Position numbers and translations under genes: made by a program. Shown here piece after piece: positions 2,359 to 64,000 of a DNA stretch of 64,000 bases. The stretch comes from Candidatus Magasanikbacteria bacterium RIFCSPHIGHO2_02_FULL_48_18. Lineage in GTDB: Bacteria > Patescibacteriota > Patescibacteriia > Magasanikbacterales > UBA922. A model generated the notes under the pieces. It saw only the letters and a program-made list of their open reading frames with translations. It was not told where the DNA came from and made no database searches. The DNA is taken from positions 221,517-285,516 of the forward strand of contig MFQC01000003.1 in NCBI GenBank assembly GCA_001784285.1. Direction: 5' to 3'. Every line of letters starts with the position of its first letter. The stretch's first letter is position 1.

Positions 2359-3045
2359 CTAACCCAGCAACATCTCTTTTGTAATCTCAAAAAGACTGTT
2401 GACTTCAATATCCGCCTTCGACAAATCTTGTTTCGCCATTGCATTGCTTCCGGAATAATGAACGCCAATACAGCGCATCCCGGCGGCTTTTGCGGCGATA
2501 ACTCCCTTAGCCGCGTCTTCCAAAACGACGCAATGTTCTTCCGGCAGAGCAAGCTGTTGCGCCGTCACCAAAAACGTTTCCGGATCTGGTTTGCCTCGAT
2601 GTAGATTTTCTCCAGACACAACCACATCAAAATATGACTCAAGGCCCAACTGGAGGAGACACAGAGTAATATACTCGAAAGACCCGGAAGAAGCAACGGC
2701 CTTTTTCAATCGTAAATCAAGGACCAGTTCGGTTATTTCTCGGACACCCGGCATGGATTTCCCGTGGCGCTTCACCAAATCAACAAAAAGACGCTGGCGT
2801 TCTCTATACATGTCACCAAAAAATTCTTGAGGAATATGATGGATGGTCATAAGGTCTTTGATCATGTCGCTCACTCGCATCCCCATATATTGTGGATCTG
2901 CATCGTCTCGCAAAAACGGGCCGCTCACATACCGCTCCAAAACCAAACGCGTGGCTTCTGTATGACAAGATACATTATCCACCAACACTTCATCCAAATC
3001 AAAAATAATGGCATCTGTCTGTGTCATATCGTTTATACTACTCAT
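2359..3045 (-). CDS. HAD-superfamily hydrolase (beta-phosphoglucomutase-like phosphatase)
   Basis: N-terminal DxD motif IIFDLDEVLVDN and HAD-IA like C-terminus (GDxxxD). ATG at 3045 overlaps the upstream stop (ATGA) at 3042-3045. Confidence 0.8.
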   Translation of the reverse strand: MSSINDMTQTDAIIFDLDEVLVDNVSCHTEATRLVLERYVSGPFLRDDADPQYMGMRVSDMIKDLMTIHHIPQEFFGDMYRERQRLFVDLVKRHGKSMPGVREITELVLDLRLKKAVASSGSFEYITLCLLQLGLESYFDVVVSGENLHRGKPDPETFLVTAQQLALPEEHCVVLEDAAKGVIAAKAAGMRCIGVHYSGSNAMAKQDLSKADIEVNSLFEITKEMLLG

Positions 3046-4007
3046 ACGCGTCGCAAGGTGGTTATCGGACGGCTTTGCGTAATAAAAAATTTTCCGTTTG
3101 CGTATGCCCATTCAATATCGCATGGAAATCCATAGTGGCATTCTACGGCTTTGCAGAGAGCGGCCAGCTCCAAAATATGGCTCGTATCCATTTTTTGTTT
3201 TTGCCCTTCTTCGCCAAGAGACACCCATATATTTTGCGCTGAGTGCTCTGTTTCAACAGCAGACGCTCGGACCAATTTTTTTGTTTGATGCCCAACACAC
3301 GTCTCTTCAATCGTCATCGCATCTTTCGCAATCACATAGCTATCGGGCGTGACATAGCCCCCGACAATGGCTTCGCCCAAGCCAAACGCGGCTTCGATAA
3401 TCATATGATTTGGATTTTCCGTCACCGGATGGACCGTAAAGGCCACCCCGGATAGTTCGGACTGAACCATTGTCTGGACGACCACCGCCACTGAAACATC
3501 GTGATCAATCAAATTTTTTTCATGGCGATAAAAAATTGCTCTTGCGGTAAACAAAGAAGACCAGCATTGTTTGATACGAGGCACTATATATTCTCTCGTG
3601 GTGTTGAGATATGTTTCGAGCTCCCCTGCCCAACTGGCGACATCAGAATCTTCCGCAGTCGCGCTCGATCGAACGGCAACGAATGGCGAGTGTAATTGAT
3701 CAAATGCGTGATAGATCTCCTCTATAATCTCAGCCGGAAAAGGAGTGTCATGAATCACATCGCGCAATATAGCGCTGGATCGTTCAATGGAGTTAATATC
3801 CTCCGGATGCGTTTCAGCGAGCCGCGCCGCAATTTCTTGTTTGATCTGTGTTGCCGCTATAAACGAATCAAAGGCGGATGACGGAATAACAAAACCCGGC
3901 GGAACCGGAATGCCTGCCTGCGTCAATTCTCCAAGCGATGCGCCCTTGCCGCCGGCAATCGCAACATCCTTTTTTGTGAGTTGTGAAAACCAAAGAATGG
4001 CGCTCAT
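3042..4007 (-). CDS. stand-alone PEP synthase / PPDK N-terminal nucleotide-binding domain protein (PPDK_N, ATP-grasp-like)
   Basis: GGKGASLGEL, AVRSSATAEDSDVASWAGELETYLN and C-terminal CDIEWA motifs typical of PPDK_N. No swivel or TIM-barrel domain follows (321 aa only). Confidence 0.85.
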   Translation of the reverse strand: MSAILWFSQLTKKDVAIAGGKGASLGELTQAGIPVPPGFVIPSSAFDSFIAATQIKQEIAARLAETHPEDINSIERSSAILRDVIHDTPFPAEIIEEIYHAFDQLHSPFVAVRSSATAEDSDVASWAGELETYLNTTREYIVPRIKQCWSSLFTARAIFYRHEKNLIDHDVSVAVVVQTMVQSELSGVAFTVHPVTENPNHMIIEAAFGLGEAIVGGYVTPDSYVIAKDAMTIEETCVGHQTKKLVRASAVETEHSAQNIWVSLGEEGQKQKMDTSHILELAALCKAVECHYGFPCDIEWAYANGKFFITQSRPITTLRRV

Positions 4008-4216: not shown

Positions 4217-5323
4217 TTAAATTTTGGTCCGTTTATTTGCAAGCCATTCAAAGGTTGGACCAAAAAATTCACGCCCAAGCGTGGGATACGCTCTTTGCGG
4301 ATCAATAAGAGCACGCACATCCTCAACCGTCATCCCTGCTTTTTTGCCAAGCTCCCAAAGACGGCTGGCATAATCAACCAGGGCACGCTGACCGGAGGAA
4401 AGATTGCCGGACACCTGAACAATTTCCCCTCCAAAATTCACCGTAAAATCTTTCCCCGGCTCCCGCGTGGGATAATCGGTTCCAACCGGAATTTCCGGAT
4501 GGTGTTGCGTAGAAAATGCCTGATCTTTCCCTTCAAATGCGTCCCGGTACGACAGCGCGGCCCATAGACCGGTCGTCGGGCTTTCCGTTAAGACCGCGAC
4601 ACCGCTTATGCCTTCTTTTTGGGGCACCGCAACCGTATTATAGGCCTGAGCGCCAAAGGTATCCCCGAGCCGAGAATACACCGGATGACTCTGCCCGGCG
4701 GCTGTGGGAGTTTCAATCTGCGACCCGGCATTGATAATGCCCGGGATCATTGGCGCGCCGGCTATATGCGCGAGATCCTGATGGCCAAGGCAGACACCCA
4801 CCATAGGCGTTTTTTCACGCAACGCCGCTTCCAGTTCCCGAAGAAGCGGTGTCCGCGATGGGTCGCTTGGATATCCCGGCCCACCGCCGATGCAAACGCC
4901 AATACGATTTTGCAACAAACGATGCATTTTTTCTTGATCTTCAAGAGTAATCGTCCCATCTATACTGACATGGATAACATTTTCCGCAAATCGAGGATCA
5001 ATTTGTACGATTCTTCCTTCGACTTGATAATATATTTCCTCAATATGAGGACGAAACTGTTCTGGCGTGGCGTCGCGGACCCAGCCTGCCGTGAATGGAG
5101 AGGTGACAATGTGAAGTATAGGATCAAAACCATCCACTCGAATGAGCCGCTCCATGGTTTCTGCCGCTTTGTCTGCCTCTTCATCCGTATAGGGCCGGAC
5201 ATCCCGATTGACGCCGAGGTACTCCGCGACATTGGTGATAATTCGCCGCTCTTCGGGAGGCAGGTTCATGCCCTCCAAAAATTCCGGCGTGCGAAATGAT
5301 GTTCCTATTTCTCGTGAATTCAT
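4217..5323 (-). CDS. class I glutamine amidotransferase-like protein (peptidase C26 / gamma-glutamyl hydrolase-like)
   Basis: Nucleophile elbow GVCLGHQ and overall GATase1 topology, with a long N-terminal extension. Confidence 0.7.
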   Translation of the reverse strand: MNSREIGTSFRTPEFLEGMNLPPEERRIITNVAEYLGVNRDVRPYTDEEADKAAETMERLIRVDGFDPILHIVTSPFTAGWVRDATPEQFRPHIEEIYYQVEGRIVQIDPRFAENVIHVSIDGTITLEDQEKMHRLLQNRIGVCIGGGPGYPSDPSRTPLLRELEAALREKTPMVGVCLGHQDLAHIAGAPMIPGIINAGSQIETPTAAGQSHPVYSRLGDTFGAQAYNTVAVPQKEGISGVAVLTESPTTGLWAALSYRDAFEGKDQAFSTQHHPEIPVGTDYPTREPGKDFTVNFGGEIVQVSGNLSSGQRALVDYASRLWELGKKAGMTVEDVRALIDPQRAYPTLGREFFGPTFEWLANKRTKI

Positions 5324-5333
5324 AAAAACGCAA

Positions 5334-6740
5334 TTATTGTTTCTTCACCTGTCCCACAATTTGAAAACATCCATCCTGCATAAGATTGGTCACCAGATTG
5401 TGAGATGACCGAGCCATGGCGCCGACATATCTTCCTTGAATCATGTACGGCCCAAAATCGTGATTGATATATTTTAAGGAAACCTTGTTGTCCTCAACAA
5501 ACGGCTCCGCATGCTGGGGAATCGTTATATATTCCTGCACAATCCACCCGCCGTCTTTGACGCCCCGCGCAATAACTTTTTTCCATTGCGGTTTTGTCAT
5601 TTTTTTGCCAATGCATATATTTGCGCCATAGGTGCCGATGGATGGCTTGATCAAAAGATGTTTTTGTTCTTTGATGAGATAATCAACCAGCTCAACCGTG
5701 TCTCCCATCACGTTCGTTGTTTTTCTCTTTTCAATAATTCTGGTCCACGGACACATATTTCCCAAAATCTGTTTTTGTTTTTCCGTAAGATACGATGAAA
5801 ATCGTTCGTCCGTGAAAAATGCAAAGAGCGCTTTGTGCGCGAATACTGAAGAACTCAGCGGATTGACAATACAGACCGCGCCATCATAAAACGCGCGAAG
5901 AATATCCTGGTAAAGAGGCGTGGTGTCTTCCAAAAGATGGCTCAAATCAAACCATCGCAAAACCAAATCATACGCTGTTCCATGATACCATACTTTTTTG
6001 TCTCGGTAATGGACCTGCTGGACGTCTCCGACAAAAGCATGGCTCCCAAATTTTTGAAATTCCTGGCACAAAAAATCCGAATCCTGATTGTACTGCCCGC
6101 TCCATCGAAGAATCAAGATATTCGGATGCGACGCAGTTCCTCCCCACTGTTTGTATGAATCAAGGAGCGCCCGATACATCTTTTTGGCCCATGTACTATA
6201 GTAGCGTATGTGATATTTTTTTTGAAATGATGCCCAAAAGGGAAACCGTTCAAGGACATCAGTCAAATCTTCAACCCAGCCGGGCGTTGCCGCGCAATTG
6301 GTGTTGAGTTCGTAGACGCGCAACCCATGTTCCGGAGTAATCACGCTGTCAAAACGCGCAAAAATTACCGGATGAGGAAAGGGTGTCGGCGCGCGCAATA
6401 ACTGGACCTCTGTTGTGGTAAGATGAAAATAGGTCTGGACGGCTTTTGACGAAGAAAGGACCTTTTGGAGGGTGGGAAGGACATCAAAAAATGTTTCCGT
6501 CCGCTCTCTGACGTGCCGCTCTATCCGCGGCGTGACAAACCGAGGCTTGATGCCGCCCGCAATAAGGCGGCCATTAAAAAATTTACCGTCCTCAAGCATT
6601 TTGTACCCGTGAAATGCCAGATAATGCGGCAATGTTTTTTTCGTCGCGGCAACATGTTTCTTGAACTCGGCAATATAGTCTTGATCAACCTTGTCAAGAA
6701 ATGCGAATTCTTCTTTTGGGATGATGAGGGTCTGTTTCAT
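5334..6740 (-). CDS. glutathionylspermidine-synthase-like / circularly permuted ATP-grasp family carboxylate-amine ligase (putative)
   Basis: 468 aa. Resembles the GspS/CP-ATP-grasp (DUF407-like) fold by eye (LIKPS.G..G, VQEYI patterns). Not verified. Confidence 0.5.
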   Translation of the reverse strand: MKQTLIIPKEEFAFLDKVDQDYIAEFKKHVAATKKTLPHYLAFHGYKMLEDGKFFNGRLIAGGIKPRFVTPRIERHVRERTETFFDVLPTLQKVLSSSKAVQTYFHLTTTEVQLLRAPTPFPHPVIFARFDSVITPEHGLRVYELNTNCAATPGWVEDLTDVLERFPFWASFQKKYHIRYYSTWAKKMYRALLDSYKQWGGTASHPNILILRWSGQYNQDSDFLCQEFQKFGSHAFVGDVQQVHYRDKKVWYHGTAYDLVLRWFDLSHLLEDTTPLYQDILRAFYDGAVCIVNPLSSSVFAHKALFAFFTDERFSSYLTEKQKQILGNMCPWTRIIEKRKTTNVMGDTVELVDYLIKEQKHLLIKPSIGTYGANICIGKKMTKPQWKKVIARGVKDGGWIVQEYITIPQHAEPFVEDNKVSLKYINHDFGPYMIQGRYVGAMARSSHNLVTNLMQDGCFQIVGQVKKQ

Positions 6741-6749
6741 AAAAAATGA

Positions 6750-8249
6750 TTATAAGATCGTGACAATGCCGCGCGTGGCATCAACCTCGACACGCATCCC
6801 ATCCTTTAGGACATGCGTTGCCGTTGCCGTGCCAACCAAGCACGGAATACCCAACTCTCGACATATAATGGCCGCGTGGCAGTTGAGGCCTCCTTCATCG
6901 GTAATCACGGCGGCGGCTTTTTTCATTGCAGGCACATATTCCGGTTGCGTCATACATGCAACCAGGATATCGCCAACTTCCACATTGGCAATTTCTTTTT
7001 CTCCTCGACACACTTTTACTCGTCCGCATGCTTTTCCAAGGGATGCGCAATTTCCTTTCAATTGCTTTGAATTCGACACGGCAGAGGAGACAAATGAATC
7101 TTGGATATTTTTTCGCTGAAACAAATGGAACAGCTGTTTTGCTTCTTCCCCCGCAAAAAGATATTCCGAAGCATTCTGAAGAAGAACATATAAACTTCCG
7201 GTCCGGCGCTTCGCGAGTTCGTCTTTCATTGTGGAAAGATCTTCCAATTCTGAAATGCGCGTATACCGCGCGTCCTCGATCGGCACACCGGCTCGCTTCG
7301 CAATTTCCGCCAATAAAAAGTCAAGATAATGAACGGATATGGTGAGACACTCCTTTCTTCTGTCATGAATTTGGAATATAGTGTCCTGCATCCGCAACAA
7401 ATCAATCAGTTCGACATTGGATATTTTTTGAAGCAGTGCGCGTTTTTTTTCCAAATGCTCGGGCAGACGTTCATATTCTTGTATGGTTTTTCCAATATCT
7501 TCCGGATGAGTGCTATATCCTTCCAATTCTTTCGTAAAATCTTCTGTTGTGACATACTTCGCCGATGTATAACTATTCAGCTTCCAAAAATATTTTTGCT
7601 GATGACGGCGTATCTTTTCTTGTATAACGGAATCCAATAGCAATGATCCTGCTGTTATTGCCGAGATTTCTTTTTGTGTGGCAAGACGCAAAATACAGCA
7701 CAAATCGTATCGTTCGGTGGTGATAAAAGAATGACGCGATGGCATCGTAAGAAGCATCATCGTATCTGTATCGTCGCCATATTCCTGTGCAACCAAATTC
7801 CGAATACGGCCCTCTGTCACAAGCGTAAACCCCTCAATACAATGAGAAACAGAAAGAAGCCGCCCGCACAAGCGGTTTACCTCCCGCCACAGCGAATAGA
7901 CAATATCCGGTGAAAGAACGGCCCAATTTTCTGATCCAATTTTTTGATATGCGGCCAAAACTTCTGTGCAAATGCGTTCATTTTCTCTCTCTATATACGT
8001 AAGGTACCCGGCATCCTTTGTATATCTTTCCCACAATTCACGAAAGATGCGTTCAAGGTCATCCCATGCGTACAAATAATAGGCTTTTTCCTGTTCAAAG
8101 AAAATAACTGATGCCGTATAACCATACCCCAAAAAAGCCGGCATGTCGCGAACCATCGAAAATGCAGGGCCATAGAGAAGAGCCGGAACGGCATTAAACC
8201 CTTGAAAATACCATTCCTTTTTTGTGAGGTCGGCAAAAAATGATTCCAT
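6750..8249 (-). CDS. PEP-utilizing enzyme mobile (phosphohistidine swivel) domain protein with ~380-aa uncharacterised N-terminal domain
   Basis: C-terminal GDILVACMTQPEYVPAMKKAAAVITDEGGLNCHAAIICRELGIPCLVG is a canonical PEP-utilizers swivel domain with catalytic His. It is paralogous to 61984-63396 and 63393-63986. Confidence 0.8.
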   Translation of the reverse strand: MESFFADLTKKEWYFQGFNAVPALLYGPAFSMVRDMPAFLGYGYTASVIFFEQEKAYYLYAWDDLERIFRELWERYTKDAGYLTYIERENERICTEVLAAYQKIGSENWAVLSPDIVYSLWREVNRLCGRLLSVSHCIEGFTLVTEGRIRNLVAQEYGDDTDTMMLLTMPSRHSFITTERYDLCCILRLATQKEISAITAGSLLLDSVIQEKIRRHQQKYFWKLNSYTSAKYVTTEDFTKELEGYSTHPEDIGKTIQEYERLPEHLEKKRALLQKISNVELIDLLRMQDTIFQIHDRRKECLTISVHYLDFLLAEIAKRAGVPIEDARYTRISELEDLSTMKDELAKRRTGSLYVLLQNASEYLFAGEEAKQLFHLFQRKNIQDSFVSSAVSNSKQLKGNCASLGKACGRVKVCRGEKEIANVEVGDILVACMTQPEYVPAMKKAAAVITDEGGLNCHAAIICRELGIPCLVGTATATHVLKDGMRVEVDATRGIVTIL

Positions 8250-40253: not shown

Positions 40254-40494
40254 AGAGGATACGTATAAGAGTTAAAAAGAATTGCCTTGAGTATAGCAAA
40301 AAAACAAAAAATAGTCCACGCGATGTGGACTATTTGAAACAGGTTCTAAGCACCCTATCTGCCTTGATTATGGTTCAAAACAGAAGAGGATGGTCGAGTG
40401 TGGGCTAGGACTCGACCGGCAGAGGCGTTTGCGCCTCCTTGTGGAAGAGTTCATCGAACGAACAGCGGGGCCCAGACCGCTGTGGGTGGGGGGA

Positions 40495-41949
40495 TTAGGC
40501 CTGCGCGACGGCCGGGAACGTGGTGATGGAGGTAGAACGGCTGGCCTGCATCGGCTCAACCGCTACCCCCGCCAGCACCTTGCCCGTGACCTCTTCAATA
40601 CCCCCATAGTGGGGGTATCCGGCCTCACGGTAATCCCGGATCATGTCGACCAGGACTTGCAGGGCGGCCCGGAGCTGGTCACCCTGCTTGGAGTGGGTCA
40701 CCCGAAGGCCACGGATGACCTGGCCGTTCTCGATGTCCTGGAAGCCGGACAGTGGGATGCAGTAGGTGAACTTCGGAAGATCACCGTTCCGCTCCCCGTC
40801 CCGAGCCGCGGCGATCGACGCGAGCAGACGGTGGAGAAGGAGCTGGACCTCGTCGAGTTGGGGGTCCTCGAACACCACGACGTCGTAGTAGGCCCCCTGG
40901 CCGGAAATGAGCCGAAGCCCAGAGACGTACCCCAGAACTTCTCTCGCGATGCGTCGGTTGTCGGCCATCTCCTGGTTGAGCGCCCAGAAGTAGGCAGGCA
41001 ACCCCTCCGGCCCGAAGTCGTTCACGAGTACAGCGAGGGCATGCTGTACGTTCATGAAGTTGTTGACTCCGAGCCAGAGGTTGCTCCAGGGGACCAGAAG
41101 TTGCCGGATGCGCCGGTCGAGGGTCGTGAGTCGGCCGAGCCGCGCAGACGTGATGCAGGCCGTCTTGGACCAGGCCGCGGTCGAGATCGTCCGCGAAAGC
41201 CCGAGTTCGAGGATTGAGCGCGGCAGTCCATCGCTGACGCCGTAGTACTCTTCGTCCGCAAGGACGCACGTCTCACGGCGTTGCGGGTCGAGAAGAAAAT
41301 CTCTGACTGCTCCGAGCTCATCGTCGTCCCAGTTCTTAGCGGTCGGGTTTCCCGGCCGCTCGATGACGACGAGACGGCTCTCCTGCTTGACCCGCCGCAA
41401 CAGACTCGGCGTCACACGGAATCCCTCGCTAGGGTCCGTGGTGATGGCCTGCACCGAACGGCCGAGAAGCTTGCAGATGACCGGTGTGTTCGGCCAGGAA
41501 GGCCGAAACACGGTTACCAGATCTCCTGGCCGTGTGACGAGATTGATCGCCCCAAAGACAGCCCCGATCCCCCCGGGGGTGATCATGCTGTCCTCGGAGG
41601 TGATCCGGACTCCAGTCATCCCTGTCAGGTTCTGGGCGAGCGCGTCGAGAAGCACCTGCTCGCCGAAGGCCTGAGGGTAGGACTCGGGGTGACGCGGGTC
41701 GGCCACGATCGCGCGATAGATGCGATCCGGCGGCAAACGCGACAGACTGCCGACCGCGAGATGTGTGACCGGAACGCCGAGCTTTTCCGCGGTGCGGACG
41801 AGTGGGCGAAGCCGCCGAAGAATCGGCGTCTCGCCCATCATGACCAGGTTTGTCGGGTTCAAGTGGTACGCCCCCTGGCTCGGGCGTTCCACCGTGGTTC
41901 TTGCGCCATAGCCAAGGGCGGCCATAAGCGCTTCACCGGTTGGAGCCAT
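40495..41949 (-). CDS. class I/II PLP-dependent aminotransferase, high-GC foreign gene
   Basis: AWSKTACITSARLGRL (PLP-lysine motif SxSKxxxxxGxRxG) and ERPGNPT. GC3-biased codons, roughly 62% GC versus about 45% background (visual estimate). Start MAPTGEAL at 41949. Confidence 0.8.
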   Translation of the reverse strand: MAPTGEALMAALGYGARTTVERPSQGAYHLNPTNLVMMGETPILRRLRPLVRTAEKLGVPVTHLAVGSLSRLPPDRIYRAIVADPRHPESYPQAFGEQVLLDALAQNLTGMTGVRITSEDSMITPGGIGAVFGAINLVTRPGDLVTVFRPSWPNTPVICKLLGRSVQAITTDPSEGFRVTPSLLRRVKQESRLVVIERPGNPTAKNWDDDELGAVRDFLLDPQRRETCVLADEEYYGVSDGLPRSILELGLSRTISTAAWSKTACITSARLGRLTTLDRRIRQLLVPWSNLWLGVNNFMNVQHALAVLVNDFGPEGLPAYFWALNQEMADNRRIAREVLGYVSGLRLISGQGAYYDVVVFEDPQLDEVQLLLHRLLASIAAARDGERNGDLPKFTYCIPLSGFQDIENGQVIRGLRVTHSKQGDQLRAALQVLVDMIRDYREAGYPHYGGIEEVTGKVLAGVAVEPMQASRSTSITTFPAVAQA

Positions 41950-42182
41950 AACTGCTCTCCTCTGGTTTTTGGTTTTGGCAGTCCCCTTGTGAAACTGCCG
42001 TGAATGGCGTTTTGCCTCAAAACCCAAATTCGGACAGACAGGATGTCCAAAACAGGGTCGCAAAAACGAGGGCGCCACCCTCGTTGAAGCCCGCGGTCCT
42101 CCATCTCCGCGGTTGAGAAAAAGTAAACTTGATTTTTGATGAACAAAGGACTTTACCCCGACAAAAGTCGGGACAAAGATCC

Positions 42183-42267
42183 TGGTGGGCCGGGCAGGAT
42201 TCGAACCTGCGAAGGCAGAGCCAACAGATTTACAGTCTGTCCTCGTTGACCGCTTGAGTACCGACCC
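42183..42267 (-). tRNA. tRNA-Tyr (anticodon GTA), long variable arm, CCA encoded
   Basis: Manual fold: acceptor GGGTCGG/CCGGCCC, anticodon stem ACAGA/TCTGT, loop CT-GTA-AA, T arm GCAGG-TTCGAAT-CCTGC, 85 nt. Confidence 0.85.
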
Positions 42268-42271
42268 CTCG

Positions 42272-42344
42272 AGCCATCTCGGGGATTCGAACCCCGGACC
42301 TTCACTTTACAAAAGTGTTGCTCTACCAGCTGAGCTAAGATGGC
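42272..42344 (-). tRNA. tRNA-Thr (anticodon TGT)
   Basis: Acceptor GCCATCT/AGATGGC, D stem GCTC/GAGC, anticodon loop TT-TGT-AA, T arm CGGGG-TTCGAAT-CCCCG, discriminator T. Lies 4 nt from tRNA-Tyr. Confidence 0.85.
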
Positions 42345-58939: not shown

Positions 58940-59211
58940 ACGGGAAAAAAGGTGATTTGTCTATTTGACGTCAAACGTCGGACGCCTACTGGCAAGGCAG
59001 GCCAAACAATCAGTACTATTGTATTGATTGACAAACGCTCAATGTTATGATACAAAACCAAATCCAAAAAAAGACCGTTTTGGTCCATTTTGGGTGTGTT
59101 CTTTAAAAAAAGACATGGCGTGCCATGAGAAGACTTTTCTCTTTTCATGGGACGCTGTGTCAAAACTGACATGGCAATGTGAAGGCTTCGAAAGAAAAGA
59201 GGAGAAACGCC
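58940..59211 (+). promoter_or_regulatory. regulatory region of the M20 cassette: TTGATT-16-TATGAT promoter, palindromes TTGACGTCAA and CATGGC-gt-GCCATG, SD aaGAGGAGa
   Basis: Read directly from the sequence. SD is 8 nt before the ATG at 59212. Confidence 0.4.
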
Positions 59212-60384
59212 ATGGCTACGAAGAACATCGCCGCCGCCGTCCGCCACGTCCTTCCCGCCACCCGCGGATTCGCATTCCACCTCCACCGCGAGCCGGAGCT
59301 CTCCTGGGGCGAGGTGAGGACCATGGACAAGGTGACCGAGGCGATCGTGAACCACTTCACGGAGGCCAGGATCGTCCGGTGGAAGTCCGGATTCTGGACT
59401 GACGTGGTTGTCAACCCGGACGATCCGACGCTCACCATGTTTCGGGCCGACATGGACGCCCTCCCTGTCCAAGAGGCCACCGGCCTGCCCTACTCGAGTC
59501 GTATCCAGGGCGTCATGCACGCCTGCGGACACGACTTCCACACGGCCGGGCTCCTCGGCGCCTACCGCGCGATTGCCCGCGGCCTGGTCAGGCCAACCCG
59601 AAACATCCGGTTCGTGTTCCAGGCGGCCGAGGAATCCCCGGAGTCCGGGGCCAAGGCCATGATCGAGGAATGCGTTCTCGAGAACGTCGTCTCGGCCCAC
59701 GGCGCCCATGTCTGGCCGTACGCGCCGGTCGGTACCGCGCTGTGCCGGCCGGGGCCAATGATGGCCAACCCGGGTGTGCTCCGGCTCAAAATCCGGTCGG
59801 CCGGCGGCCACGTGGCCGATCCGGAGCACGGTTCGGGTGCTCTCCGCGGGGCGGTGTGCGCGATCTGGGGGCTCCTGTCGTCCCAGTTCAACGTGGTCCC
59901 CGAGGGCCAGCCGTTCGTGCTGGAGCCGGTCCAGTGCCAGGCTGGAGACGGTGTCGTCACCAATGTCCTCCCCTCGGAGGCAACGTTGGTGTTCAACATC
60001 CGGCATTTCCTGGTAGGGGACCAGCGCGACCTGCTCCAGGCCGCGATCGAGGGGGTGATCCGCACCTCGGTCGCGAAGGTCCCGGGCGCCGAGGTCGCCG
60101 ATCTCTCCTTCCAGTGGGGCGCGCCGGCACTTCACAACACGCCCGAGGACGTGGAGCGGGTCGGGGCGCTCCTCGGCGCCCAGGGGCTGACCGTCAAGGA
60201 GATGGCCCCGATCCTCGGGGCCGAGGACTTCTCCTACTTCCTCGGCGAGCGGCCCGGCTCATTCTGGTTCTTCGGTGCCCACACCGAGGGCACGGGGCCG
60301 ATCCACAGCCCCACCTTCGTGTGCAACCCGAAGGTCCTCCAGGGCCTCATCGCCTACTGGCTCGCGCTCGCGACCGCTCCGTAG
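59212..60384 (+). CDS. M20D-family amidohydrolase (hippurate hydrolase / N-acyl-amino acid amidohydrolase-like), high-GC foreign gene
   Basis: HACGHD, GAEDFS motifs. Roughly 65% GC with strong GC3 bias. ORF track starts at 59179, but the SD supports 59212. Confidence 0.85.
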   Translation: MATKNIAAAVRHVLPATRGFAFHLHREPELSWGEVRTMDKVTEAIVNHFTEARIVRWKSGFWTDVVVNPDDPTLTMFRADMDALPVQEATGLPYSSRIQGVMHACGHDFHTAGLLGAYRAIARGLVRPTRNIRFVFQAAEESPESGAKAMIEECVLENVVSAHGAHVWPYAPVGTALCRPGPMMANPGVLRLKIRSAGGHVADPEHGSGALRGAVCAIWGLLSSQFNVVPEGQPFVLEPVQCQAGDGVVTNVLPSEATLVFNIRHFLVGDQRDLLQAAIEGVIRTSVAKVPGAEVADLSFQWGAPALHNTPEDVERVGALLGAQGLTVKEMAPILGAEDFSYFLGERPGSFWFFGAHTEGTGPIHSPTFVCNPKVLQGLIAYWLALATAP

Positions 60385-60431
60385 GGCGGGCCAGTCCAGC
60401 GACAGGGGGGAACAAAAAGGGGGAAAAGGAA

Positions 60432-60490
60432 ACGCCCTCGTTGGTCACTGATCACGCACGATCATACCAACGAGGGCGTCTGTGTTTTTT
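60432..60490 (+). terminator. Rho-independent terminator of the M20 gene
   Basis: 14-bp stem acgccctcgttggt / accaacgagggcgt followed by a TTTTTT run. Confidence 0.7.
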
Positions 60491-60850
60491 ATCCTGAGCG
60501 AGCCCGCCGATAGGCGGACGAGTCGAAGGATCCTGTTTCAGATAGGATCCCGTTTCAGACAGAACGCTAAAAAGATTTTTCATCTGAGGATTCATCTTTT
60601 CAACCAAATCTATTTTTTTCTTTCTCGTCCACCCTTTCAATTGTTTCTCCCGGGCAGTTGCTTCTTCCGGAGAAAAATATTTTTCAAAATATATCAAGAT
60701 ATCAATATTGTATTTTGCAGTGAATGAATGTTTCTTTTGTTTCCTTACATGTTCACTAAATCTTCTTTTCAAATTATTGGTAACGCCAATATATAAAACT
60801 GTTTTTCGTCTGTTGGTCATTATGTATGTATAATAATATTTTCCACACAT
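60452..60850 (-). CDS. small GIY-YIG nuclease family protein
   Basis: YYTYIMTNRRKTVLYIGVTNNLKRRFSEH is a GIY-YIG motif. Strong SD aaGGGAGGg. The C-terminal tail is read through the opposite-strand terminator, so the real stop is probably earlier. Confidence 0.7.
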   Translation of the reverse strand: MCGKYYYTYIMTNRRKTVLYIGVTNNLKRRFSEHVRKQKKHSFTAKYNIDILIYFEKYFSPEEATAREKQLKGWTRKKKIDLVEKMNPQMKNLFSVLSETGSYLKQDPSTRPPIGGLAQDKKHRRPRWYDRA

Positions 60851-60959: not shown

Positions 60960-61904
60960 TCAGGATAAAACTTCAATCCCCAACAAATACGTCACGACCG
61001 CAACCGCCACTTCTCGATACGGCGCGTACTTCATATGAAGAGACCTCGGATCCGGATCAACATCTTCGTTGACTTCGCCGCAACGCGGGGTAATCACGAC
61101 CAGTTGCGCGTCGTCTCGCATCATTTTCATTTTTTCACGATTCACCGGCACAAATGTTTTTTTCACGTGCTCGGTTAATTCCGGCGACAATGCCGATCCG
61201 CCGGCTTTGGTGAGAATGAGGGCGTCGACATCGCCGATAAAATTATCCAATGTGTCGTACGTCAAATTTTTTAATCCGTTTTGTTTTGCTGCGTCAACGG
61301 TTTCTTGTTTTATTGGAAATTTGCCGCCAAGGTCATCAATAACCAAATCAACGCCATAATGACCAAGAACCGGAATAAGCGACGTACAGCATCGGCCTCC
61401 CCCGCTTTTCGCGCCGGGTGTTCCGTAGATCCCAATTTTCATTCCTTGAAGCGGACGCTTCATGTGATACGTCATTTGCGCCAACAGCATAATACCGGCC
61501 AACGCGTGCTCGCGCGTTCCGGATCCGCCGTTAATAATGGGAATGCTCGACACCCGCGCCGCGCGCTCGGCCGCGTCGTCCTCGGGATGGCGCATGAGAA
61601 GACAATCAACAAATGACCCATACGTCACGATCAAATCTTCCCACGTTTCGCTTTTTCCAAGGGTTTCGTCTTTACCGATCGAGGACTCCGCAAAACCCAC
61701 CCATCCGCCGCCCGCGCGGATCATGCCGGATTGAAACGCGGTCATGGTGCGGATAGAGGTTTGCATAATGAGTGTGGCAATCACTTTGCCCTGGAGCAAT
61801 GTTGGCGGAATACCTTCATCAACAAATTTTTTTGTTCGACGAAGCAATTCGTCATAGCCCACCCTATCAATATCGCGGGCCGAAATAAAATGGTTTGGAG
61901 GCAT
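60960..61904 (-). CDS. aspartate/ornithine carbamoyltransferase-fold protein, divergent motifs
   Basis: MQTSIRTMTAF (compare STRTR), RHPED (compare HPxQ), ITPRCGE (compare HCLP). Both CP-binding and second-domain regions present, but non-canonical. Confidence 0.6.
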   Translation of the reverse strand: MPPNHFISARDIDRVGYDELLRRTKKFVDEGIPPTLLQGKVIATLIMQTSIRTMTAFQSGMIRAGGGWVGFAESSIGKDETLGKSETWEDLIVTYGSFVDCLLMRHPEDDAAERAARVSSIPIINGGSGTREHALAGIMLLAQMTYHMKRPLQGMKIGIYGTPGAKSGGGRCCTSLIPVLGHYGVDLVIDDLGGKFPIKQETVDAAKQNGLKNLTYDTLDNFIGDVDALILTKAGGSALSPELTEHVKKTFVPVNREKMKMMRDDAQLVVITPRCGEVNEDVDPDPRSLHMKYAPYREVAVAVVTYLLGIEVLS

Positions 61905-61983: not shown

Positions 61984-63396
61984 CTATATCTTCTTTATGG
62001 TTCCTTTTTCCGCATCCACCTCAACCATATCGCCATCATGAAATATTTTTGTTGCATTTTTAGTGCCAATAACGCATGGAATTTGGAGTTCTCTTGAAAC
62101 AATCGCCGCGTGGCAGACAACACCCCCTTCGTCGGTGACAATGGCGCCTGCTTTGCGTATCCCAACCATGTACTCCGGATGGGTCATGGACGCCACAAGA
62201 ATTTCACCGTCCCGCAACAAACGAATATCTTTGGCATGTTGAATAATGCGCACACGGCCCCGGGCATTGCCAGGAAACGCGGACCTCCCACGGACGGTTT
62301 CTTTCCCGTCTTTCTCAAAATAATCCGGAATCAATTCCGCGAGAAATTGATCCCGCGCGTTTGGCTCGGCAATGACCGTGGTGTTCTTTTTTTGGAAATG
62401 CGTAATATACATCTCTTTCAAACGGTGATGCAGTATTTCCTCTTCCAAGACTCTCCCCGTCTCGCACGCATAAATAATCTCTTTTTTGGTTAAGTGCCCC
62501 GCAGAGCCGGACGGGAGCTGAAAATACCGTTCAAAGGCTCTATAAAATGGCGCGGCATTCATGAGTCCCCATTTATATCGGTCAATGCGTTCGGTGCGCA
62601 AAAAAACGTACATATGAATGGTGCGCGCCAGCTCGTACAACACCGGATCATCATGACGCAAGCGAGAAAAAATATGTTCTATTTTTTGACGCGTCTGTTC
62701 TCTCCCATCGCGCATCTCACGGAGCGCATCACGGGGATCGGCATATTCGGCAATAAGCCCCTCCAATTCTTTTTCGGTCCAGTATCGGTCATTCACAGAA
62801 TACCCATTGAGGTGGCCAAACTGCTGTTGTAATTGTTGAAGCCTTTCTCTGTCTCCTCCCGTTATTTTCCATTCAAGAAGCCCTTCAATCAATTGGTGCA
62901 TTTGTATGGATTCCGATGGCAACGCAAGTGTGTCGTATATAGCCTGCCAATCCGCATACCATTTTTGAAGGAGATCCCGCAATCGATCCTCAAGCACATA
63001 GGTAATAGACCAAGGAAACCATATATACGGCACATACCTGTCCCACACACGTGTAAACACTTCATAGAGGGGGAGGAGATTGTTTCCCCATCCATCCTCC
63101 GCGGCAGAACGCAATTCCAGGACAGCCCGCTCTATCACAGCCCAATCCTCTTCAAACGCCGACCGGTGCCGATCAATCGACCAGTCAGGGCGGTCAACAA
63201 GGCTTGCCCATGCATTCATCAGCCGTAAAAATTCCTTTTCCACATACCATGCTTCCCACTTTCCTCCCGTCCCAACATAAATTACTGTGCTTAATGGCGT
63301 TGGCGACATGCGCAGTGCGGGAGCAACCAAGGAAATTTCCATGTCTTGCGTTCTGGTGGGACGGGTATAAATGCGTATGAATCGTTTGTGTGTCAT
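61984..63396 (-). CDS. PEP-utilizer swivel (phosphohistidine) domain protein with Trp-rich uncharacterised N-terminal domain (paralog 2)
   Basis: C-terminus GEILVASMTHPEYMVGIRKAGAIVTDEGGVVCHAAIVSRELQIPCVIG. Overlaps the next gene by 4 nt. Confidence 0.8.
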   Translation of the reverse strand: MTHKRFIRIYTRPTRTQDMEISLVAPALRMSPTPLSTVIYVGTGGKWEAWYVEKEFLRLMNAWASLVDRPDWSIDRHRSAFEEDWAVIERAVLELRSAAEDGWGNNLLPLYEVFTRVWDRYVPYIWFPWSITYVLEDRLRDLLQKWYADWQAIYDTLALPSESIQMHQLIEGLLEWKITGGDRERLQQLQQQFGHLNGYSVNDRYWTEKELEGLIAEYADPRDALREMRDGREQTRQKIEHIFSRLRHDDPVLYELARTIHMYVFLRTERIDRYKWGLMNAAPFYRAFERYFQLPSGSAGHLTKKEIIYACETGRVLEEEILHHRLKEMYITHFQKKNTTVIAEPNARDQFLAELIPDYFEKDGKETVRGRSAFPGNARGRVRIIQHAKDIRLLRDGEILVASMTHPEYMVGIRKAGAIVTDEGGVVCHAAIVSRELQIPCVIGTKNATKIFHDGDMVEVDAEKGTIKKI

Positions 63397-64000
63397 AGTT
63401 TTGAAATTTGTTTTTTAATACTGCCATTTTCAGCGTCGACAATAACGGATTCTCCGCTTGCAAAAATCTCCATTGCGTTTTTCACGCCCACGATGCACGG
63501 AATATTCAACTCCCGAGAAATCACTGCCGCGTGCGAGGTCATGCCTCCTTGTTCGGCGACAATCGCCGCCGCTTTTTTCATGAGGGGGAGAAAATCCGGC
63601 GTCGTCTGGTTGGTAACAAGGATATCACCCCTCTCAAAGGAGTCAAATTGATCGCTTCCCAAAACCACGCGAACCGTCCCCGCCGCGCGTCCTCGGGATG
63701 CCGGCGTTCCTTTGGCTTCTTGAAGCATATGATAATCCTGAAAAAAATGAGCGAGGTCAATACCCTCAAGATCTTTTCGCAACAGAAGCGCGCACCCCTG
63801 CCTGTCAAACAATGCCAAACAGCCCTCGCGCCGTTCTGCGGCAAGAGAACGGAATGCGTCTGGATCGCGCAACAAATCTTTCAGCTCAAAAAACATGATA
63901 TAGCGTATAAGCTCGGGATCAAAACCAATCCGCCGCGCCAATTCATCAAGATAAAAAAATAAAAAATAATTTAACCGTAACACCACTTGCTTCCGACAAT
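63393..64000 (-). CDS. PEP-utilizer swivel domain protein (paralog 3), 5' end runs off the window
   Basis: C-terminus GDILVTNQTTPDFLPLMKKAAAIVAEQGGMTSHAAVISRELNIPCIVG. The listed ORF starts with GTG at 63986, but the frame stays open to 64000. Confidence 0.7.
   Translation of the reverse strand, partial: CRKQVVLRLNYFLFFYLDELARRIGFDPELIRYIMFFELKDLLRDPDAFRSLAAERREGCLALFDRQGCALLLRKDLEGIDLAHFFQDYHMLQEAKGTPASRGRAAGTVRVVLGSDQFDSFERGDILVTNQTTPDFLPLMKKAAAIVAEQGGMTSHAAVISRELNIPCIVGVKNAMEIFASGESVIVDAENGSIKKQISKL

Follow-up and report, generated by a model that had tools for sequence, protein, structure and literature searches.

How might several genes that each encode a phosphohistidine swivel domain be served by the single ATP-grasp gene in their vicinity, and what would their products phosphorylate? 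The question is raised by a 64,000-nucleotide stretch of contig MFQC01000003.1 from Candidatus Magasanikbacteria bacterium RIFCSPHIGHO2_02_FULL_48_18 (the whole stretch is called the window below), in which a sequence-only reading had noticed three genes sharing a C-terminal His-swivel domain and one gene for a PPDK_N (ATP-grasp) domain. On the basis of domain content, fold, conserved His and Arg/Glu residues, gene neighborhoods, the operon link of one copy to the ATP-grasp gene, and natural gene fusions in other genomes, we consider it likely that the three genes encode paralogous carrier and substrate subunits of a split dikinase of the rifampin phosphotransferase (RPH), HpeHI or PpsAB type. 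The genes and their carrier domains lie as follows.

6750..8249, minus strand: copy 1, 499 aa, with the architecture of copy 2, PF00391 and homology in the N-terminal domain
61984..63396, minus strand: copy 2, 470 aa; swivel domain preceded by an RPH-like, presumably substrate-binding domain (residues 1 to ~360)
63393..64000, minus strand: 3' part of copy 3, 201 codons and a stop, with PF00391; predicted carrier/substrate subunit
63393..63396, minus strand: ATGA shared by the stop codon of copy 3 and the start codon of copy 2, read from the sequence
62002..62214, minus strand: swivel domain of copy 2, residues 395-465 (Pfam coordinates)
6876-6878, minus strand: codon for the carrier His458 of copy 1
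62110-62112, minus strand: codon for the carrier His429 of copy 2
63531-63533, minus strand: codon for the carrier His452 of copy 3

A Pfam search identified PF00391 in copy 1 (E = 6e-26, 90.3 bits), copy 2 (1.8e-25, 88.7 bits) and copy 3 (9.5e-29, 99.3 bits), in each case above the gathering cut-off of 23.1 bits. A three-way alignment contains 36 invariant columns, nearly all in the C-terminal ~100 residues. The carrier His, in the motif GGxx[CS]HAA, is one of them and is invariant in all 217 family members. The three genes are a real paralog set, far beyond chance, as the sequence-only reading had held. We found no further swivel copies in the 64 kb by tblastn, and neither the three proteins nor the rest of the window contain the PEP-utilizers_C TIM-barrel domain (PF02896). 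The 4-nt overlap noticed between copies 2 and 3 is the ATGA at 63393-63396, and this sharing of a stop and a start suggests translational coupling. Copy 2 had been called Trp-rich, which holds modestly (14 W, or 3.0%, versus 1.2% and 0.8% in the other two copies). In copy 3 the motif reads GGMTSH (63531-63545). The Thr two residues ahead of the His, in place of which copy 1 has N and copy 2 has V, occupies the site at which phosphoenolpyruvate (PEP) synthase and pyruvate phosphate dikinase (PPDK) carry their regulatory Thr.

The reading frame of copy 3 is still open at the window edge, so that the gene does run off the stretch as had been reported. We completed it from window-identical contigs, including those of the Candidatus Magasanikbacteria metagenome-assembled genomes (MAGs) GCA_001783045.1 and GCA_003485625.1. 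The complete protein, encoded on the parent contig (L001:4064-5557, 100% identical to the window), is 497 aa long and has PF00391 as its sole Pfam record. It contains neither the PPDK_N domain that the sequence-only reading had thought might lie beyond the edge nor a TIM barrel, and is thus not a full-length PEP synthase or PPDK. The apparent resemblance of copy 3 to only the distal part of copy 1 was an artefact, resulting from truncation of copy 3 by the window edge.

The regions upstream of the swivel domains had been described as a different N-terminal domain in each copy; our alignments indicate instead that they are homologous. Two features of copy 2 serve as reference points.

62317..63396, minus strand: N-terminal domain of copy 2, residues 1-360, presumed substrate-binding, with a fold like that of the RPH rifampin-binding domain
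62587..62598, minus strand: codons for R267-T268-E269-R270 of copy 2, a helix aligned by HMMER to R666-E667-Y-P-K670 of RPH-Lm

Copy 2 residues 132-467 align with copy 1 at 29.6% identity (2e-30), and a hidden Markov model (HMM) of the N-terminal domain, built from 50 homologs after removal of both window sequences, gives 45 bits for copy 3 (residues 76-361) and 40 bits for copy 1 (residues 47-359). Judged by these comparisons, the three N-terminal regions are one fast-diverging domain of ~360 aa. Its rapid divergence is also indicated by a phmmer search in which the copy 2 N-terminal domain alone was compared with 1.84 billion representative sequences, and which returned 57 matches (a result that speaks to divergence and is no measure of family size). 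Nearly all of these proteins are ~450-495 aa long, the exceptions being four larger proteins (805-1,794 aa) and a number of shorter fragments. The domain has no match in Pfam, and NCBIfam matches of the proteins are confined to the swivel region. Across the 217 family members only three positions of the N-terminal domain are conserved above 80% (R270, E306 and R325, in copy 2 numbering), in contrast to the nearly invariant swivel domain, and this is the pattern expected of a fixed catalytic core with variable pockets. The earlier view of an expanded phosphohistidine-carrier family that varies in its N-terminal, presumably substrate-binding, region is upheld, with the variation residing in one domain.

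An AlphaFold2 model of copy 2, built on a 52-sequence alignment, reached a pLDDT of 95.1 and a pTM of 0.91. When this model was compared with the PDB using Foldseek, the top six entries were all RPH-Lm (5fbu, 5fbt and 5hv1 best; TMq 0.42-0.58). The best match covered the whole query (E = 1.6e-14, TMq 0.58), and identity between copy 2 and RPH-Lm in the structural alignment is 15-16%. The remaining matches, to the C-domain of pyruvate kinase, PPDK and Enzyme I, involve the swivel domain only (TMq ~0.2). At the sequence level, HMMER aligns positions 162-469 of the family profile with RPH-Lm residues 547-866 in one unbroken stretch that comprises the C-terminal half of the rifampin-binding domain together with the swivel domain. 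The comparison with antibiotic or xenobiotic phosphotransferases in the sequence-only reading was thus apt, since RPH is the sole full-length structural match and the profile alignment extends over both domains.

The HMMER alignment also places the copy 2 helix R267-T268-E269-R270 on a part of RPH that is known to act in catalysis. RPH residues R666, E667 and K670 touch phosphate, and the R666A and E667A substitutions abolish the second phosphotransfer while ATP turnover persists with a kcat/Km that is ~tenfold lower (PMC4844700). The corresponding residues are R-T-E-R in copy 2, H-D-R-R in copy 1 and Q-D-C-R in copy 3; in the family, column 267 is K, R or Q, column 268 is D, T or E, and column 270 is R in 177 of 217 members, with a low posterior probability at the aligned K670 column. 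These data suggest that the basic-acidic-x-Arg helix of the family may be the counterpart of RPH R666/E667/K670, the exact residue match being uncertain.

The proposed carriers would be charged by an ATP-grasp partner. The window contains a single PPDK_N gene (tblastn), and a phosphatase gene overlaps it.

3042..4007, minus strand: stand-alone PPDK_N (ATP-grasp) gene, 321 aa; PF01326, 312 bits over residues 17-319 of 321
2359..3045, minus strand: HAD-family phosphatase gene, 228 aa; PF13419 / PF00702; gene call L090:10963-11649

Residues 4-319 of the PPDK_N protein align end to end with RPH-Lm's ATP-grasp domain (residues 5-317, 195 bits), and the protein also matches PEP synthase 8a8e (248 bits) and the 387-aa stand-alone chain 9goj. 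Copy 1 and the PPDK_N gene belong to one tight operon, in the order carbohydrate-kinase-like gene, copy 1, 468-aa gene, GATase-like gene, 64-aa open reading frame (ORF), PPDK_N and HAD, with gaps of 5, 10, 11, 19, -4 and -4 nt; two other genes and the 64-aa ORF therefore separate copy 1 from PPDK_N, and the start of the HAD gene overlaps the PPDK_N stop by 4 nt. We presume that the 3042-4007 protein is the charging subunit for all three carriers. The interval between the two genes (4217-6740, minus strand) encodes a protein of 468 aa, whose match to a circularly permuted ATP-grasp is below threshold, and a GATase-like protein of 368 aa. Neither of these genes, nor the carbohydrate kinase or HAD gene, recurs near family members elsewhere (E < 1e-6), PPDK_N alone doing so, and we did not retain the other operon genes as parts of the system for this reason. 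The HAD phosphatase, a gene for which also lies near PPDK_N in locus L009, is a possible partner that removes phosphate, although its membership in the system is uncertain.

Gene fusions in other genomes provide strong evidence, of the "Rosetta stone" kind, that PPDK_N and the carriers act together and that one ATP-grasp domain may serve many carriers. An uninterrupted ORF of 3,761 aa in a Woesearchaeota locus (L077, 3323-14608) encodes one PPDK_N and eight PEP-utilizers domains (Pfam), a Nanoarchaeota locus (L074, 3662-11797) encodes 2,711 aa with one PPDK_N and five PEP-utilizers domains, and L084 (7988-13978) encodes one PPDK_N and four; in L049 the domain order of RPH occurs within 792 aa. 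In the fused ORFs one PPDK_N at the N-terminus precedes several modules that each consist of an N-terminal domain and a swivel domain. The motif T-[DEN]-x-GG-x-x-[CS]-H-A-A is kept in every module of six fused ORFs that were checked, and modules within one fused protein are 28-65% identical, indicating that these ORFs are not assembly repeats. A database search with the L074 protein yielded 119 further large proteins (1,494-4,275 aa), all 119 of which contain exactly one PPDK_N, usually N-terminal, together with one to nine swivel domains (mode three). PEP-utilizers_C is absent from these proteins save three at the end of the list, PEP synthases that contain inteins. Because nature has joined one PPDK_N to many modules, the stand-alone PPDK_N and carrier proteins would be expected to act together as well.

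The fused modules come in two sizes, ~340-365 aa and ~460-490 aa (DPANN and Patescibacteria MAGs; proteins P0170-P0285). Public labels of the giant proteins are "PEP-utilizing enzyme", "phosphoenolpyruvate synthase" and "rifampicin phosphotransferase". The giant proteins also gave weak Pfam matches to Epimerase_2, EDR2_C and DRTGG; these lie within swivel domains and were discarded as spurious.

Unfused family members also occur in arrays. A scan of species-representative genomes yielded at least 465 confirmed stretches, from which the best 79 loci were taken for analysis of context. Most of these 79 are labeled Patescibacteria or DPANN; about one-fifth bear other labels (Gammaproteobacteria, Methanosarcinales, Planctomycetota), and we suspect that these are mislabeled bins. 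With purpose-built HMMs, up to 11 swivel ORFs were found in ~21 kb (locus L047), and no locus among the 81 examined contains more than one PPDK_N. Consecutive family genes are on the same strand in 136 of 138 pairs and less than 300 nt apart in 88 of 138. Paralogs within an array are 24-41% identical (median 31%), and the best match of each family member sits in a different locus, indicating that the copies are old and retained rather than recent duplicates. In neighbor clustering, a stand-alone PPDK_N of ~315-345 aa is the commonest neighbor (24 loci within 4 kb), and tblastn places a PPDK_N near the family in 34 of 81 loci overall. The earlier suggestion that one visible PPDK_N serves all copies thus finds support both in the loci, none of which has a second PPDK_N, and in the composition of the fusions.

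Other recurrent neighbors are TrmB regulators (8 loci), HD-domain phosphohydrolase genes (5 + 4 loci), a cytidylyltransferase-like gene (5 loci), carbamoyltransferase-like genes and a ~330-aa family without a Pfam match. The last of these (L034:10343-11332 and 10 other loci) contains an RHG motif reminiscent of histidine phosphatases and, with 11 loci, is the second commonest array neighbor after PPDK_N. In the Patescibacteria locus L009 (1-15651), six family paralogs in a row are interspersed with an APH/choline-kinase-type gene and two ~315-aa genes, and are followed by a HAD gene and one PPDK_N, then by type IV secretion-like genes. The closest sampled relative of copy 1 is L042:504-1994 (45% identity over 490 aa; next best 31%), on a contig that is binned as a Nanoarchaeia archaeon and also has a PPDK_N, which points to transfer between domains of life or to mis-binning of the contig.

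The proteins could work as follows, if RPH, PEP synthase and HpeHI are taken as guides. The single ATP-grasp protein (3042-4007) would bind ATP and phosphorylate the swivel His of each paralog, releasing AMP and Pi. The charged swivel domain would then swing back to its own N-terminal domain, where the phosphate would pass from the His to a hydroxyl of a bound small molecule, with assistance from the basic-acidic-x-Arg helix. The fast-diverging N-terminal domains would give every paralog its own acceptor. Our guess, from the HAD and HD phosphohydrolase neighbors and the sugar-type regulator, is that such a system handles phospho-metabolites rather than conferring classical resistance. HpeHI has a sub-micromolar Km and is a scavenging enzyme (PMC12167813); because the dikinase reaction is strongly driven, a battery of enzymes with such affinity could trap or activate host metabolites. 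We therefore propose, tentatively and with somewhat more doubt than conviction, that Patescibacteria and DPANN, ultra-small symbionts whose own biosynthesis is very limited, possess a multi-carrier dikinase in which one ATP-grasp charges up to nine or more modules, in arrays or in a single polypeptide as long as 4,275 aa, trapping or activating a panel of host-derived metabolites by phosphorylation, the products being processed by nearby HD and HAD phosphohydrolases.

Several observations weigh against the view that the three genes encode subunits of a split dikinase. A distance of 55 kb separates copies 2 and 3 from the PPDK_N gene, and the rest of the genome (the contig of ~290 kb and other contigs) could hold more PPDK_N genes. 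In other genomes, a PPDK_N lies within 10 kb in only the 34 loci mentioned above, so that pairing of every family member is unproven. The structural resemblance to RPH amounts to a TMq of only 0.57 with a root-mean-square deviation of 9 Å, in part owing to domain orientation; the conserved Arg of the helix pairs with K670 rather than R666, at low posterior probability; and, copy 3 excepted, sequence matches to the PRK08296 (PpsA/HpeH-type) and RPH models do not extend from the swivel domain into the N-terminal domain.

Alternatively, the genes could be common paralogs of PEP synthase or PPDK, or fragments of a gluconeogenic PEP synthase that has been split. The swivel domains are indeed closest to those of true PEP synthases (101 and 87 bits for 8a8e; 121-129 bits for PRK06464), the PPDK_N protein obtains its best NCBIfam score with PEP synthase (332 bits), and the Joint Genome Institute (JGI) calls some homologs "phosphoenolpyruvate synthase/pyruvate phosphate dikinase". 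However, scores of 109-129 bits are far below the PEP synthase equivalog cut-offs of 598 and 739.75, and the ~360-aa N-terminal domain has an RPH-like fold that is foreign to PEP synthase (PMC12167813). With the PEP/pyruvate domain missing from the three proteins and from the window, and complete copy 3 carrying PF00391 alone, we regard this explanation as highly improbable. Another possibility is that the proteins are strictly antibiotic-resistance enzymes, split phosphotransferases for rifamycins or other antibiotics, with the arrays forming a battery against compounds from hosts or neighbors. Consistent with this idea, RPH is the only full-length structural match and has been placed in a broad group of small-molecule dikinases that includes some with antibiotics as substrates (PMC4844700); the L009 array includes an APH/choline-kinase-type gene, and JGI names some fused homologs "rifampicin phosphotransferase". 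Nevertheless, the window proteins score 54-71 bits against the RPH equivalog, for which the cut-off is 999, and share only 15-16% identity with RPH. Moreover, the age of the paralogs speaks against an arms race: copies that are 24-41% identical and have their closest relatives in other genomes fit a conserved housekeeping role better, and the neighbors (HD and HAD phosphohydrolases, a cytidylyltransferase-like gene and a sugar-type TrmB regulator) hint at metabolism. A dedicated resistance function is therefore unlikely, though some members might have one.

Finally, the proteins could act independently of an ATP-grasp enzyme, as carriers or transphosphorylases or in a regulatory phospho-relay, with the PPDK_N link applying to some members only. 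HpeH alone can move phosphate from 4-phosphoacetophenone to acetovanillone (PMC12167813), and proteins other than dikinases, pyruvate kinase (2e28) among them, also contain swivel domains. Neither copy 2 nor copy 3 has a PPDK_N close by, and none is found within 10 kb in 47 of 81 loci. Absence within 10 kb is, however, not absence from the genome, and the window itself shows the pairing at a distance of 55 kb. Given also that PPDK_N is the commonest neighbor of the family and that every one of the 119 fused proteins pairs exactly one PPDK_N with one to nine modules, we consider independent action quite unlikely as a general rule, though copies 2 and 3 might be such cases, and a split dikinase with paralogous carrier and substrate subunits remains the explanation that we favor.

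The surroundings of copies 2 and 3 contain one further gene that recurs with the family.

60960..61904, minus strand: divergent Asp/Orn carbamoyltransferase-like gene; OTCace_N, 79.7 bits; C-domain below the Pfam cut-off

A gap of 79 nt separates this gene from copy 2, which lies upstream of it on that strand. Only the carbamoyl-phosphate-binding half of its product passes the Pfam cut-off. Related genes adjoin family arrays in L007 (79% identity), L054 (45%), L089 and L039, so a functional link to the family may exist, although membership in the system is uncertain. No terminator-like site was found on the minus strand between copy 2 and this gene; the promoter and terminator scan was uninformative, as every site fell within coding sequence. 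Upstream of copy 3 are a TsaD-family-like gene (weak PF00814 match) and a 198-aa gene. PADLOC returned zero defense-system matches for the six proteins submitted, and the idea of a defense island was dropped for this reason. An Rfam scan identified three tRNAs only, none of them close to the three carrier genes.

Two GC-rich patches interrupt the window, which averages ~0.47 GC. The first, at 40400-42100 (0.55-0.63), contains a 527-aa ORF (40495-42078, minus strand), adjoins two tRNA genes (42186-42344) and looks like a horizontal acquisition. The second, at 59000-60400 (0.615), contains an M20 peptidase gene (59179-60384) that is the lone plus-strand gene in a minus-strand run and adjoins a GIY-YIG gene (60452-60850); this patch is probably a foreign insertion.

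In some organisms, up to 11-13 kb of a genome of ~0.8-1 Mb is devoted to the carrier/ATP-grasp system. This investment, together with the retention of old paralogs, indicates that the system is probably central to a host-dependent lifestyle, and its substrates could reveal what these organisms take from their hosts or defend against. Labels such as "PEP synthase", "pyruvate phosphate dikinase" and "rifampicin phosphotransferase" may lead to false calls of gluconeogenesis or resistance in reconstructions of metabolism for the Candidate Phyla Radiation (CPR) as well as for DPANN. The fusions and the loci, with their consistent single PPDK_N, would extend the swivel mechanism to one-to-many charging, possibly in trans. 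In the searchable literature on CPR, DPANN and Patescibacteria we found no description of the tandem arrays, the family or the giant proteins that combine a single ATP-grasp with many swivel domains, and in the searchable literature no description of such one-to-many domain logic for any swivel-domain enzyme. The one mention of PPDK_N in a "giant genes" preprint concerns unrelated Omnitrophota proteins.

Among known systems, RPH-Lm (PDB 5FBS/5FBT/5FBU, 5HV1) resembles the family in combining an ATP-grasp domain, a helical substrate domain and a C-terminal His swivel domain, and it alone matches the copy 2 model over its full length. RPH is, however, a single chain of 867 aa, whereas in the window the ATP-grasp protein is encoded by a separate gene, several paralogous carrier subunits accompany that one gene, and the substrate domain is ~360 aa rather than ~430 aa (an estimate for RPH). 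The RPH equivalog in question is NF041857 (RIF_Ptrans_rph), and the swivel and ATP-grasp sequences of the window are nearer to PEP synthase than to RPH. PigC, RedH and other single-chain enzymes of the RPH family (~880 aa, in secondary-metabolite clusters) likewise share the set of ATP-grasp, substrate and swivel domains; NCBIfam models of this type match the PPDK_N protein and, on the three carriers, only the swivel-bearing C-terminal part. The ATP-grasp and swivel domains of PEP synthase and PPDK are homologous to those of the window and are the closest sequence matches for both. These enzymes use the His~P swivel mechanism, yet they possess a C-terminal TIM-barrel PEP/pyruvate domain that the window set does not have, and they have no RPH-type helical domain. 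The matches to the PEP synthase models TIGR01418 and PRK06464 (cut-offs 739.75 and 598, respectively) involve the swivel region only.

A parallel for the split design is provided by HpeHI, CreHI and PpsAB, in which the ATP-grasp protein (HpeI/PpsB) is separate and HpeH/PpsA comprises an RPH-like substrate domain and the swivel His; both subunits are needed for ATP-dependent phosphorylation of phenolics, the dikinase reaction has been shown for PpsAB and HpeHI, and HpeH, CreH and PpsA are ~45% identical to one another (PMC12167813). The window set has the same division of labor, with a separate ATP-grasp protein and a second subunit made up of an RPH-like domain and a C-terminal swivel His. The known enzymes pair one ATP-grasp with each carrier and act on phenolics in the aromatic catabolism of Actinobacteria and Proteobacteria, whereas the family described here occurs in Patescibacteria and DPANN as arrays with as many as 11 members at a locus, or as fusions of one ATP-grasp with nine modules. 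The H subunits are ~570-630 aa long (from PRK08296 model lengths) versus 470-499 aa for the window proteins, which score 51-105 bits with the PRK08296 models (cut-offs 578-730), the match covering only the last ~105-120 residues. By analogy, then, the window proteins would work like the HpeHI/PpsAB group yet form a separate family. Thus, although split RPH-like dikinases are already known, the family itself, its arrays and its giant fusions appear, from the searchable literature, to be new.

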